A DNA stretch of 64,000 bases from Escherichia phage vB_EcoM_Skers. The stretch lies in sequence record MW748999.1; one strand, given 5' to 3'. The translations under genes were made by a program, and so were the position numbers. A model generated the notes under the pieces. The model did no database searches. It was not told the origin of the DNA and saw only the letters and a program-made list of their open reading frames with translations. Positions 34,310-54,621 of the stretch are shown here, piece after piece; the first letter of the stretch is position 1; every line of letters starts with the position of its first letter.

Positions 34310-34819
34310 TCAAATAATTTTCACTGGAATACTATTAACAATCTTGTATTGTACTTGATTGTCAGATCCCCGCCACGGCTTCTTCGTTGGCATATCTTTA
34401 ATATAACGCCCATCGATGAACATGTCAACTGATTCTACAATTTTTCTTTGCTCATCATTCAATTGGTCAAGGGTATAACCAGACCATAGCCAAATATCTT
34501 TATTTGGCATCCATGATTTTACTTCATCGATGATCCGCTGTACACCCTTTAAATTGCGTTTATACAATGGATCGCCACCTAAGAATGTTAGCCCCTGAAT
34601 AAAATCAGGTCTAAGCAGATCCAGAATCAATCCCATTGTATCATCGGTGAATGGTTCCCCGTTCTTAGGATTGAGTAGACTGGAATTAAAGCAACCATCA
34701 CATGCGTGTGAACATCCGGTAACGTAAAGGGAGACTCTCACTCCCTCACCGTTAACCATATCACAATCTTTAATATCGGCATAGCGTAGTTTGCCGTATG
34801 TATCAGAACTCATATTCAA
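34310..34819 (-). CDS. nrdG: anaerobic ribonucleotide reductase activating protein (radical SAM)
   Basis: CSHACDGC (Cx3Cx2C) radical-SAM cluster motif; 169 aa; adjacent to nrdD module. Confidence 0.85.
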   Translation of the reverse strand: MNMSSDTYGKLRYADIKDCDMVNGEGVRVSLYVTGCSHACDGCFNSSLLNPKNGEPFTDDTMGLILDLLRPDFIQGLTFLGGDPLYKRNLKGVQRIIDEVKSWMPNKDIWLWSGYTLDQLNDEQRKIVESVDMFIDGRYIKDMPTKKPWRGSDNQVQYKIVNSIPVKII

Positions 34820-35030
34820 TTACCCCGAACTCGTTTACAATCTGCGCTTTATAGTAACCACCGCGAGATGCTAATAGATAAGCTGGGCTTAGGTATTCGT
34901 ATTCACGGATTTCTACTTGTGCGTTTTCAGTTTCCCAAATCAGTAAAGTCCACATATTTGATTCTCCTGTAAAGTTGTATCTCGTCTTGATGAATATAGT
35001 ATAGGGGATCTCGCGATCCCCGTCAAGCAT
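34803..35030 (-). CDS. hypothetical small protein
   Basis: 75-aa minus-strand ORF. Confidence 0.3.
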   Translation of the reverse strand: MLDGDREIPYTIFIKTRYNFTGESNMWTLLIWETENAQVEIREYEYLSPAYLLASRGGYYKAQIVNEFGVIEYEF

Positions 35031-35564
35031 TTATTTTAAATTTTTTCGAATGTATTCAGACCATTCCTTCCCTGTCATTTCGGACCCATTCTGGAAACTG
35101 AAATATTCATACGGCATCGAGTCAAGATAAAACAGGATCATACATCGCGCCATATAATACCAATCACGATTAAAGTAAACTACGTTATCGCCAGTACCAT
35201 CAGCACCTTTATCATAACCATCGCGGGTACGGGCGACCCATTGAATGGTATCATTTTTCTCACGGATAGTAACAGGTTCCCAATATCCAGCACATCCAGC
35301 ATGACCACACGAACAAGTAAGGAAATATTGACCTTTTGCTTTGTTGTCATCCCATTCACGATGAATTGGTTCGATTTCGTGAAACAGTGCTAAGCAATCA
35401 TGATTATGCAACACTGGCTCACCATCAATCAATGCATGGAATGTATACAAACGACCCGTAGACAAATAGCTATCCTCACGCTCAACCAGTTCAATAGCAA
35501 TCTTTTTAGCTTGTTCTTTGTGTCGTTGTGCTTTACGTTTACGGTTTAATGATTTCATAGTCAC
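35031..35564 (-). CDS. hypothetical protein (Cys/His-rich)
   Basis: 177-aa ORF between nrdG and nrdD. Confidence 0.4.
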   Translation of the reverse strand: MTMKSLNRKRKAQRHKEQAKKIAIELVEREDSYLSTGRLYTFHALIDGEPVLHNHDCLALFHEIEPIHREWDDNKAKGQYFLTCSCGHAGCAGYWEPVTIREKNDTIQWVARTRDGYDKGADGTGDNVVYFNRDWYYMARCMILFYLDSMPYEYFSFQNGSEMTGKEWSEYIRKNLK

Positions 35565-35575
35565 CTCACATTATT

Positions 35576-36115
35576 TCAAAGATCGCGATATTGTACATTA
35601 TGAAAATGAGAACTTGCATTACCAATATTGTAGATAACAAATTCTTCATCCGGCGCTTGCGCTACAAATTGAGTATGAGCAACCGCTACGACTTTAAAAA
35701 TACGATCCGTGATCTTGTGTTTAATTTCGACTCCTACTTCCATAGGAACATATTCATGTGTTTCTGTTTCAGTCGCAAAACAGCCATCTTCTTCATAAGC
35801 ACGAACAAATCGATCGCAATCAGTACGCTTAACAAATTCAAGAGTATACAATTCTCGTGAATTGTCGGTATAGACCAATACAGAATTATTATGATAGCGA
35901 ATCACATACAGGTTATTATCATCGTCAATTACGCAAAAGCTACGGATTCCTTCGCCTTGACTCCAGCAGATATTAACCACCGTTCCTCTAATAAAAAAAC
36001 TTTCCTTTAAATTAAAACTAGTCAATGTGCTAGCGTGCATTTTAACAACAACACCATCGCCAATTTCCAGTTTACGAAGTTTAACTTCTTTGCTCAGTAC
36101 ACAAAACATCATCAT
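35576..36115 (-). CDS. hypothetical protein
   Basis: 179-aa ORF downstream of promoter cassette at 36144-36171. Confidence 0.4.
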   Translation of the reverse strand: MMMFCVLSKEVKLRKLEIGDGVVVKMHASTLTSFNLKESFFIRGTVVNICWSQGEGIRSFCVIDDDNNLYVIRYHNNSVLVYTDNSRELYTLEFVKRTDCDRFVRAYEEDGCFATETETHEYVPMEVGVEIKHKITDRIFKVVAVAHTQFVAQAPDEEFVIYNIGNASSHFHNVQYRDL

Positions 36116-36143
36116 GTTGTCCTCTCGTTGTTTTCGATGTGAA

Positions 36144-36171
36144 CATTATACATTAGCTAATCAGGTTGTCA
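36144..36171 (-). promoter_or_regulatory. sigma70-type early promoter (TTGACA-16-TATAAT)
   Basis: Minus-strand TTGACA and TATAAT hexamers directly downstream of the nrdD terminator. Confidence 0.45.
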
Positions 36172-36176
36172 ACACC

Positions 36177-36209
36177 TAAAAACGAAAAAGCCGACCCTTT
36201 CGGATCGGC
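36177..36209 (-). terminator. rho-independent terminator after nrdD
   Basis: Hairpin AGCCGAtCCgaaaGGgTCGGCT followed by U-tract on the minus strand. Confidence 0.5.
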
Positions 36210-36215
36210 TGAAAA

Positions 36216-52902: not shown

Positions 52903-52932
52903 TTAATACTCCTTTGTTGTTTCAATGGGGGT

Positions 52933-52961
52933 ATATTACTACCCCCGGTCATGTGTGTCAA
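52933..52961 (-). promoter_or_regulatory. promoter-hairpin cassette (TTGACA-17-TAATAT inside GGGGGTA/TACCCCC palindrome)
   Basis: Minus-strand motifs between ORFs 52962 and 52902. Confidence 0.45.
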
Positions 52962-53222
52962 CTACTTTTTCAAGAATTTTTTAATTGCGTTCCAAAGACC
53001 TTTATTCTCAGGTTGTTTTGGTTCTTCGACAAGTGTCCACGGACGGTCGTCAAGGTATGCACAGCTTTTCAGAGAAATAAAAAGTTTGTATCCTTTATCA
53101 TCTCTGATGTAACCGTAGGTAGACATTCTTTCATCCGGCGTAAACTTATACAGTTTATTTGGGGTGATGTAAGATCTACTACTATAAGGTGTCATCACAT
53201 ACATCATGGCACTAACTCCCAT
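52962..53222 (-). CDS. hypothetical protein, small paralogue family
   Basis: KLYKFTPDER...GYIRDDKGY...CAYLDDRPWTLV. Confidence 0.4.
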   Translation of the reverse strand: MGVSAMMYVMTPYSSRSYITPNKLYKFTPDERMSTYGYIRDDKGYKLFISLKSCAYLDDRPWTLVEEPKQPENKGLWNAIKKFLKK

Positions 53223-53398
53223 TTATCACCGCGAAGATGAGAACATCCACCATCAAGAAGTATCGTAATACGAAACCCCGCATCATCTTCAATATACCCG
53301 ATAGTCGGTGGATTTTCGTCGTCTCGTGTTGGGGTAAAATCATACATCTTTCCCGGCGTAATATCGTGTCCTTTATTGCTATTGGTATAAACTTGCAT
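53204..53398 (-). CDS. hypothetical protein, small paralogue family
   Basis: KMYDFTPTRDD...GYIEDDAGF...GCSHLRGDKWELV. Confidence 0.4.
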   Translation of the reverse strand: MQVYTNSNKGHDITPGKMYDFTPTRDDENPPTIGYIEDDAGFRITILLDGGCSHLRGDKWELVP

Positions 53399-53419
53399 TT
53401 TCTTAATCTCCTATATTAA

Positions 53420-54118
53420 CTAACCACGGGTATAGTGTTCCAGAACAACGGTCAGATGAATATATTCTAATAAATCCTTCCAAAAGTCAACATCTGGTTC
53501 TTCCGGCATACCGTTTTTCTTTGCCTCTTCACGCGCGAGTTTAACACGTTCGTAGAGATCTTTCAATTCTTCCCGCACATTATCAAAGGTTCTTTCTCCT
53601 AACTTACATGCTAAAATAGAACCACGTTTAGCGAGTGGGAATTGTAGATCACCTGTCTGATAGATTTCAAGTAGCTGATAACCAACACGCAGAGCATGAG
53701 AAAGATCTTTCCAGTTACTGAAATACTTTTCAGATTTGGCTACCTGCTTTTTGAGATAGCCAGACAAACCCCACATACCAACATGATAGAATTTATCTCG
53801 ATGTGTTCGGATGTATTCCCATTCTCTGGAGGATTCAATCAACATGTTACTAGGCGCGTGCACCATATCAATAGCGCCGATATCACCTTTACATGCCAGA
53901 TTGATAAACCGTTTTAGACTGAACATATTAACATCAATATCGTCTTTGGTGTTCTTGATACCTTGACCGCTAGTGCTTTGGTCATAGTGTTCTTTCATCG
54001 ATCCTAAGATAATTTCTTTCGCAGTCGGAACAAAGATACCACGATAATCTTTATCTGAATTTTCAGTATCAAGGCCGTATAAGTGAGATCCGAAGACCAT
54101 TTTAACCATTGTATGCAT
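53420..54118 (-). CDS. Pol-beta-superfamily nucleotidyltransferase of unknown substrate
   Basis: GSHLYGLDTENSDKD fits the minimal NTase motif GS-x(9-13)-DxD; helical C-terminal half. Confidence 0.5.
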   Translation of the reverse strand: MHTMVKMVFGSHLYGLDTENSDKDYRGIFVPTAKEIILGSMKEHYDQSTSGQGIKNTKDDIDVNMFSLKRFINLACKGDIGAIDMVHAPSNMLIESSREWEYIRTHRDKFYHVGMWGLSGYLKKQVAKSEKYFSNWKDLSHALRVGYQLLEIYQTGDLQFPLAKRGSILACKLGERTFDNVREELKDLYERVKLAREEAKKNGMPEEPDVDFWKDLLEYIHLTVVLEHYTRG

Positions 54119-54159
54119 AATTAAACCCTCAATTGATTAAGAGATTACATCATAACATC

Positions 54160-54193
54160 ATAAAAAGAAAAAGCCAACCCTTTTTGGATTGGC
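54160..54193 (-). terminator. rho-independent terminator after grcA-like gene
   Basis: Hairpin GCCAAtCCaaaaaGGgTTGGC followed by U-tract on minus strand. Confidence 0.5.
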
Positions 54194-54204
54194 TTGATGA
54201 AAAA

Positions 54205-54621
54205 TTAGAGAGATTCGGTAAAGGTACGCGCGATAACGTCACGCTGCTGGTCTGGAGTCAGACTATTGAAGCGCACTGCGTAACCAGAAACGCGAATTGT
54301 AAGCTGCGGGTACTTCTCAGGATGTTCAACCGCGTCAAGTAACATTTCTCGTAACAATACGTTAACATTTAGGTGCTGACCACCTTCGACAACAGGAGCA
54401 CCATTATCTACAATGACAGGACGGAAGCTAGTTGTGTGCAGTGCCAGCGAATCGACGTCTTCTGCGGTGATCACATGGTCTTCTGCGAAAGTTTTACTAA
54501 CAATTACTTTAGCGCCGATCAGTGCTTTCGGTTCGGATACCAGAATCATAGGCGCGAAGTGTCCACCAATAATAGTACCTTTATGCTCACCTTTCATGAT
54601 TTGAATTGCTTTAAATTCCAT
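54205..54621 (-). CDS. autonomous glycyl-radical cofactor (GrcA/YfiD-like; T4 Y06I-type)
   Basis: C-terminal block [10 protein letters not shown]...[39 protein letters not shown] is near-identical to E. coli GrcA. Confidence 0.8.

Follow-up and report, generated by a model that had tools for sequence, protein, structure and literature searches.

We consider it likely that the early region of Escherichia phage vB_EcoM_Skers encodes two separate glycyl-radical functions, both known from phage T4: an anaerobic ribonucleotide reductase with its own activase (NrdD and NrdG), and Vs.6, a small protein that would act as a spare part for pyruvate formate-lyase (PFL). This reading comes from the analysis of a stretch of 64,000 nucleotides of the phage (sequence record MW748999.1), referred to below as the window, and all positions are those of the window unless another record is named. 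The span of interest, 34310-54621, is bounded by the end of nrdG and the start of vs.6, and every gene within it is on the minus strand. The integrity of the three genes, their motifs, homology and synteny, and the purifying selection on vs.6 were observed directly. All three genes are already known and annotated in RB49-type phages, and their main features are as follows.

34310-34813, minus strand: nrdG, radical S-adenosylmethionine (radical-SAM) activase of the anaerobic ribonucleotide reductase (TIGR02491, Fer4_12, CX3CX2C motif, RB49 annotation)
36216-38078, minus strand: nrdD, class III (anaerobic) ribonucleoside-triphosphate reductase, 620 amino acids (family models, T4 alignment)
36294-36296, minus strand: codon of NrdD Gly595, the glycyl-radical site in RRVSGYLG, equivalent to T4 G580 (T4 alignment)
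54205-54621, minus strand: vs.6, GrcA/Y06I-like autonomous glycyl radical cofactor, 138 amino acids (Pfam, PDB, phrog_1209, alignments)
54208-54390, minus strand: glycyl-radical domain of Vs.6, residues 78-138, which mimics PflB residues 698-759 (Pfam, HMMER)
54283-54285, minus strand: codon of Vs.6 Gly113, the predicted radical glycine in RVSGYAV (from R110; invariant in the alignment)

The three genes were found, on the minus strand, at the positions given in the original prediction, which had described them as a complete anaerobic glycyl-radical toolkit. Their database matches exceed chance by a wide margin. That description holds in part. All three genes are present and the NrdD/NrdG system is complete, but the window contains neither a PFL nor a PFL activase to accompany Vs.6, and the genes lie at two distinct early-gene sites separated by 16 kb. 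What the phage has is a single complete glycyl-radical system (NrdD with NrdG) plus one dependent spare part.

Identity of Vs.6

The C-terminal half of Vs.6 is a PFL-type glycyl-radical domain. Residues 78-119 match the Pfam family Gly_radical (PF01228) with 61.3 bits against a cut-off of 22.2 (E = 1.5e-16), and the whole protein matches phrog_1209 from end to end. The best match in the PDB is E. coli GrcA (6owr, E = 5.8e-33), followed by the C-terminus of PFL (1h16/1cm5 residues 698-759, E = 6e-27 with HMMER), and the domain shares more than 80% of its residues with the solved structures 6owr and 1h16. Over the last 60 residues, 55 are identical to E. coli K-12 GrcA, 54 to T4 Vs.6 and 50 to PflB, while the N-terminal half, which is probably disordered, shares only 24 of 59 residues with T4 Vs.6 and 16 of 52 with GrcA. 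The near-identity to GrcA that had been claimed for the C-terminus is borne out, as the 138-residue open reading frame (ORF) ends exactly in the 29-residue peptide quoted in its support, of which 28 residues are those of K-12 GrcA and one is a D/E change. An alignment of 10 homologues, covering four phage groups, GrcA and PflB, contains 35 invariant columns, including R110, S112, G113 and Y114. The motif RVSGYAV is invariant across all 10, so that alignment with GrcA and T4 Y06I, which had been suggested as a check, finds the glycine-radical motif present.

Vs.6 is 100% identical to a protein of a deposited genome of the Krischvirus RB49 (OZ035808.1). The gene is annotated vs.6 in RB49 and as an “autonomous glycyl radical cofactor” in phages W115 and kaaroe. 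Homologues were found by tblastn in 1580 phage records, and the carriers listed include Straboviridae, T5-like Demerecviridae, an Erwinia jumbo phage, and Aeromonas and Vibrio phages.

Comparison with T4 Vs.6, GrcA and PflB

Judged by sequence and position, the 138-residue protein is the Krischvirus counterpart of T4 Vs.6, also called Y06I. The two share a two-part architecture and membership of phrog_1209, as well as two N-terminal motifs, KAxQI..G.HKGTI and A+.IVSKTF.ED, that are weakened in E. coli GrcA. Their positions also correspond. In T4, vs.6 lies between vs.5 and vs.7 near regB, in RB49 it lies between nrdC.11 and vs.8, again near regB, and the window copy sits in the same early-gene neighborhood as T4 vs.6, upstream of the vs.7/vs.8 position. 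The proteins differ in length (138 amino acids versus 120 for T4 Y06I), the window protein having insertions of 18 and 5 residues in its N-terminal half relative to T4. They also differ in their relation to the host gene, since the 3′ half of T4 vs.6 is 97-99% identical to E. coli grcA at the nucleotide level, compared with 75% for the window copy.

GrcA (YfiD, 6owr) is likewise a standalone glycyl-radical domain, of ∼14 kDa, and the C-terminal identity of 55/60 includes its TP(D/E) tail. The helix after the first strand of the Vs.6 domain, however, reads as in full-length PFLs and not as GrcA's RETLEDAVKH, so that the domain joins a PFL-type 10-residue helix to a GrcA-type 17-residue tail. 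With the C-terminal domain of PflB (1h16, residues 698-759), Vs.6 shares 50 of 60 residues and a 13-residue loop. Unlike PflB, Vs.6 lacks the ∼700-residue barrel and the catalytic cysteines, and it could act only by complementing a PFL that has been cleaved.

Such an activity has a biochemical precedent. According to PMC8683613, which refers to Wagner et al. 2001, both YfiD and T4 Y06I are activated by the PFL-activating enzyme (PFL-AE) and rescue PFL that has been cleaved by oxygen. In the same paper, T4 Y06I and YfiD/GrcA are the only two spare-part proteins with biochemical proof of PFL rescue. The proposal that the 138-residue protein is a GrcA/YfiD-type spare glycyl-radical domain is supported by the PDB matches, the alignment and the T4 position. 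The companion statement that T4 carries such a homologue is also correct, as T4 vs.6 (Y06I) is the positional counterpart and, according to PMC8683613, has been validated biochemically.

Several points nonetheless weigh against a GrcA-like function for Vs.6. The protein scores 133.8 bits on TIGR04365, the NCBIfam spare_glycyl equivalog, and does not reach the cut-off of 170, because its N-terminal 36 residues are unmatched. Of two controls scored on the same model, E. coli GrcA reaches 234 bits, while T4 Y06I, at 151.1, also falls below the cut-off. As the biochemically validated T4 protein fails too, we dropped the low score as evidence against membership. The cut-off has been set to suit the bacterial N-terminus, and the phage branch is excluded by its N-terminal half and not by its function. 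The N-terminal half may matter in another way, in that its divergence, together with the 18-residue insertion, could give Vs.6 a binding behavior different from that of GrcA and T4 Vs.6. YfiD's N-terminal half is required for binding, according to PMC8683613. Lastly, no phenotype of a vs.6 mutant surfaced in literature searches, which were not aimed at that question.

Age, Selection and Exchange of vs.6

The near-identity of the Vs.6 C-terminus to GrcA at the protein level could be taken to mean that the gene was captured recently from host grcA DNA and may have no function. The G+C content of vs.6 (45.6%, compared with 40.2% for the window) and the apparently recent exchange between T4-type copies and E. 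coli grcA point the same way. The nucleotide sequence argues strongly for the opposite. Across the 60 codons of the domain, vs.6 is 75% identical to E. coli grcA, falling to 45% at third positions, and in comparisons with T4, GrcA and PflB the synonymous divergence (dS) is saturated (above 1.5) while the nonsynonymous divergence (dN) is about 0.1. The best E. coli DNA match is in fact pflB, at 76.8% and spanning only the 3′ 44% of the gene, and the N-terminal half is phage-specific. A back-translated search with a 17-residue signature gave no match in 185,579 species-representative bacterial genomes. A shorter, 14-residue signature gave 17 matches, 63-76% identical to the window at the nucleotide level and confined to long ORFs in Vibrionaceae and a small number of other groups. 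Of the 17 ORFs, 12 are 743-783 amino acids long, the size of full-length PFLs, four of the other five run off the fetched locus, and none of the 17 is GrcA-sized. With E. coli matches of at most 77% over the 3′ 44% of the gene, and no bacterial source of the 17-residue signature, recent capture from the host was rejected and is, in our estimate, extremely improbable. Window vs.6 is instead an old phage gene under strong purifying selection, which is also seen in the comparison with RB49 (dN 0.007, dS 0.185).

The same selection bears on a second alternative, in which Vs.6 acts as a decoy, either titrating host PflA or blocking PFL, and so stops host fermentation. Inhibition of host enzymes is frequent among phage early genes, and the N-terminal half of Vs.6, with its insertion, is unlike that of GrcA. 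A decoy, however, would have no need of the whole catalytic-loop domain, radical glycine included, which is under strong purifying selection, and according to PMC8683613 the T4 orthologue restores PFL activity. We therefore regard a decoy as very improbable, and retain the spare-part reading.

Other phages show a different history for this half of the gene. In T4, the 3′ ∼185 nucleotides of vs.6 (NC_000866, locus 4558-4745) are 97-99% identical to E. coli K-12 grcA (locus 567-756), with sharp borders, one at the EGGQHLNV codons and the other at the stop codon, and with an unrelated 5′ half and unrelated flanks on both sides. With the grcA segment as query, megablast matched 633 phage records at 95-99% identity, together with Klebsiella phages at 87-89%. 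The T4-type glycyl-radical half looks like the product of a recent phage-host exchange or gene conversion in which the window copy was not included. A separate case is Shigella phage JK32 (locus 1201-2258), in which vs.6 is 97-100% identical to the window at the nucleotide level until about nucleotide 200 and then falls to ∼63% through the glycyl-radical domain, reading NAGHHLNA...RISGYATRFNAL. An HNH endonuclease gene lies immediately downstream of JK32 vs.6, and the pattern is consistent with a homing endonuclease having co-converted the sequence that flanks it. In phage vs.6 generally, the glycyl-radical half looks like an exchange hotspot, with the Krischvirus copy in the window representing an old, unexchanged lineage.

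NrdD and NrdG

The second glycyl-radical function is the anaerobic ribonucleotide reductase. NrdD matches PF13597 (E = 4e-175), TIGR02487 (579 bits, cut-off 326) and NF006732 (875 bits, cut-off 657). The last of these is an E. coli-type model of 712 positions, and since only positions 98-706 are covered, NrdD lacks the ATP-cone, as does T4 NrdD. Against the T4 NrdD structure (1h78, E = 1.6e-253), the protein shows 64% identity and runs collinear with residues 14-604. The catalytic residues N79, C80, C291 and N312 align with T4 N78, C79, C290 and N311, and the zinc-ribbon cysteines C558, C561, C576 and C579 (CxxC-x14-CxxC) align with T4 C543, C546, C561 and C564. The roles of these residues in class III ribonucleotide reductases, and the zinc-ribbon motif, are described in PMC4493059.

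NrdG is intact as well. It scores 166.1 bits on the TIGR02491 equivalog, above the cut-off of 126.1, matches Pfam Fer4_12 with E = 2.4e-43, and keeps the cluster motif CSHACDGC (CX3CX2C). Translation probably starts at the ATG at 34813, which gives 167 amino acids and agrees with the RB49 annotation (504 nucleotides), while the mechanically defined ORF extends to a TTG at 34819.

The closest known system is T4 NrdD/NrdG (PDB 1h78/1hk8), with the same catalytic cysteines and asparagines, the same zinc ribbon and radical glycine, and no ATP-cone. There are also differences. T4 nrdD carries a group I intron. The window gene does not, and its description as intron-free proved accurate, as nrdD is a single 620-residue ORF collinear with T4, and an Rfam scan of the entire window at gathering thresholds matched no family, neither a group I intron nor any other known RNA. 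Relative to T4, the window NrdD has two short insertions, around residues 327-350 and 420-429, and three ORFs of unassigned function separate nrdD from nrdG.

Activation of Vs.6 and Proposed Roles

NrdG stands alone as a radical-SAM activase in the window: no second CX3CX2C ORF of at least 80 amino acids, and no PFL or PFL activase, is encoded there. Apart from NrdD and Vs.6, no protein of the window contains RV[SAC]GY. A tblastn search with E. coli PflA gave full-length matches in only 24 phage records, the top three being 100% identical to E. coli PflA and located in Escherichia phage records of 33-40 kb, and the others listed coming from faecal contigs or from records of Enterococcus, Listeria and Staphylococcus phages. 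Of these 24 records, 15 were listed, and no T4-like phage is among those 15. The remaining ∼1100 matches cover less than 80% of PflA and are presumed to be cross-matches to NrdG.

These results could be read as a self-contained system, as the word toolkit in the original prediction implies, in which NrdG activates Vs.6 or Vs.6 repairs oxygen-cleaved NrdD. The RVSGY core is common to NrdD and Vs.6, and NrdG, as the sole activase present, is weakly similar to PflA (TIGR02493, E = 2e-6). Yet the Vs.6 domain copies PflB (50/60) and not NrdD, whose C-terminus is unrelated outside RVSGY and is preceded by a zinc ribbon absent from Vs.6. Moreover, T4 Y06I is activated by host PFL-AE, according to PMC8683613. 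Both versions of a self-contained system are thus highly unlikely. With no other activase in the window and a domain that copies PflB, Vs.6 would have to rely on the PflA and PflB of the host.

The proposed roles are therefore distinct for the two parts. In the first, NrdG, as a radical-SAM [4Fe-4S] activase, would install the glycyl radical on Gly595 of NrdD, which would then turn ribonucleoside triphosphates into deoxyribonucleoside triphosphates (dNTPs) without oxygen, with formate as the probable reductant by homology with T4 and E. coli NrdD. NrdD and NrdG would in this way supply the phage with DNA precursors in anaerobic hosts. In the second, we infer activation by host PflA, rescue of PFL, and a benefit to the phage in micro-oxic infection. 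Over its C-terminal 60 residues, Vs.6 copies the segment of PflB that is removed when the active enzyme is cut by oxygen at its radical glycine, and its homology with T4 Y06I and with E. coli GrcA/YfiD predicts that it would bind the cleaved PFL. Host PflA would then install a glycyl radical on Gly113, restoring PFL activity, and the supply of acetyl-CoA/ATP and formate could continue during micro-oxic infection. The suggestion that these genes suit infection of a facultative anaerobe agrees with the hosts of all close relatives, which are E. coli or Shigella.

Formate appears in both parts of this scheme, and the two functions might be coupled, with Vs.6 keeping host PFL at work to supply formate as the reductant for phage NrdD, in the service of phage DNA-precursor synthesis and not of the host's energy metabolism at large. 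We view this coupling as possible but rather doubtful. Formate provides both reducing equivalents in characterized class III reductases of the T4/E. coli type (PMC4493059), and the window NrdD retains the residues corresponding to T4 N78, C79, C290 and N311. A GrcA-like gene and nrdD also occur together in unrelated Straboviridae and T5-like Demerecviridae, for example in phage TrudiGerster, although this may merely mirror shared enterobacterial hosts. The distance between vs.6 and nrdD/nrdG, with no co-transcription, speaks against coupling. So do the numbers of carriers, as nrdD was found in 2912 phage records compared with 1580 for the GrcA-like gene, an approximately twofold excess from which it follows that NrdD does not require the GrcA-like gene. 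A literature search gave no paper joining PFL repair to phage NrdD. If true, coupling would explain why both functions recur in T4-like and T5-like enterobacterial phages.

Genomic Context and Expression Signals

The window derives from an RB49-type, T4-like coliphage of the genus Krischvirus. It aligns with a 22.5-kb segment of RB49 (AY343333, 33000-55500) in three collinear blocks at ∼96% nucleotide identity, and a 901-nucleotide piece around vs.6 matches 60 phage records, nearly all of them Escherichia or Shigella Krischvirus phages at 97-99% identity. The RB49 annotation of the region lists the T4-type early genes nrdG, nrdD, frd.2, 49, nrdC, dam, rI, tk, vs, regB, nrdC.11, vs.6 and vs.8, with many ORFans interspersed. 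The interval of ∼16 kb from nrdD to vs.6 holds about 50 unrelated early genes, such as endoVII, nrdC, dam, rI, tk, vs, regB and nrdC.11. Further features near the genes of interest are given here.

54626-54633, minus strand: strong Shine-Dalgarno sequence AAGAGGTG, 4 nucleotides upstream of the vs.6 ATG (read from the sequence)
54149-54195, minus strand: 3′ element of vs.6, a terminator-like hairpin (54195-54171, 10 bp, T-run) with a degenerate promoter, TTGGCT-17-TATGAT
36145-36210, minus strand: PeSL-type element right after the nrdD stop codon, a G+C-rich hairpin and T-run followed by a perfect early promoter, TTGACA-16-TATAAT (repeat family D3, intact copy)
38648-38675, minus strand: perfect sigma-70-type promoter TTGACA-16-TATAAT with TG, 5′ of the ORF 38123-38617 and nrdD (consensus match only)
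34803-35030, 35031-35564 and 35576-36115, minus strand: three ORFs between nrdG and nrdD, matching only DUF7170 and PHROGs of unknown function

On its upstream side, vs.6 abuts a 41-codon ORF and vs.8. Its 3′ hairpin comes directly after the stop codon and overlaps the degenerate promoter, the whole element being a diverged PeSL copy with 60% identity to repeat family D3. Hairpin-plus-early-promoter cassettes of the PeSL type occur in the window at 36145-36210, 48316-48358 and 54149-54195. PeSL promoter/stem-loop cassettes, including their association with nrdD, are known from RB49 and phi1 (PMC2839356). The promoter at 38648-38675 is a likely candidate for the early promoter of nrdD, judging from its match to the consensus. 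A different repeat, of 78 nucleotides, is found in two minus-strand 5′ leaders (39833-39910 and 40743-40820), where TTGACA is followed by a hairpin (GGGAGTA..TACTCCC) and then by a ribosome-binding site and start codon. The repeat may be a regulatory leader common to both, separate from the PeSLs.

The ORFs flanking nrdG and nrdD, 33772-34308 and 38123-38617, have matches only to PHROGs of unknown function and to DUF7170, while 38672-39850 and 39907-40491 match phrog_8944 (goF mRNA metabolism modulator). Nothing connects these four ORFs, or the three between nrdG and nrdD, to glycyl-radical systems. Just downstream of nrdG, three copies of repeat family D1 are spaced ∼500 nucleotides apart (33227-34308), and the only ORF of this region that was scanned, 33772-34308, matches phrog_5347, 622 and 3710. 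From this arrangement, the ORFs here look like tandem paralogues, related to the two goF/frd.2-like phrog_8944 ORFs beyond nrdD. Immediately downstream of vs.6, nrdC.11 (53420-54118) encodes a nucleotidyltransferase of the RlaP/Pol-beta type (PF10127, E = 7e-14; phrog_388).

Compared with RB49, ∼0.9 kb (AY343333 45301-46197) is missing from the window at 46773-46799. In RB49, this segment is annotated as a gene “38”-like tail-fiber assembly/adhesin ORF within the early region. There is also a smaller rearrangement near 45477-45553.

Implications

The significance of these findings beyond correct annotation is slight. For annotation itself they are mildly useful. The NCBIfam cut-off for GrcA misses the entire phage branch, and many records consequently label the gene “hypothetical”. 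For the biology of the group, the presence of nrdD, nrdG and vs.6 indicates that RB49-type phages, like T4, are equipped to infect facultative anaerobes at fluctuating oxygen, with a system predicted to make dNTPs anaerobically and a probable spare part for PFL.

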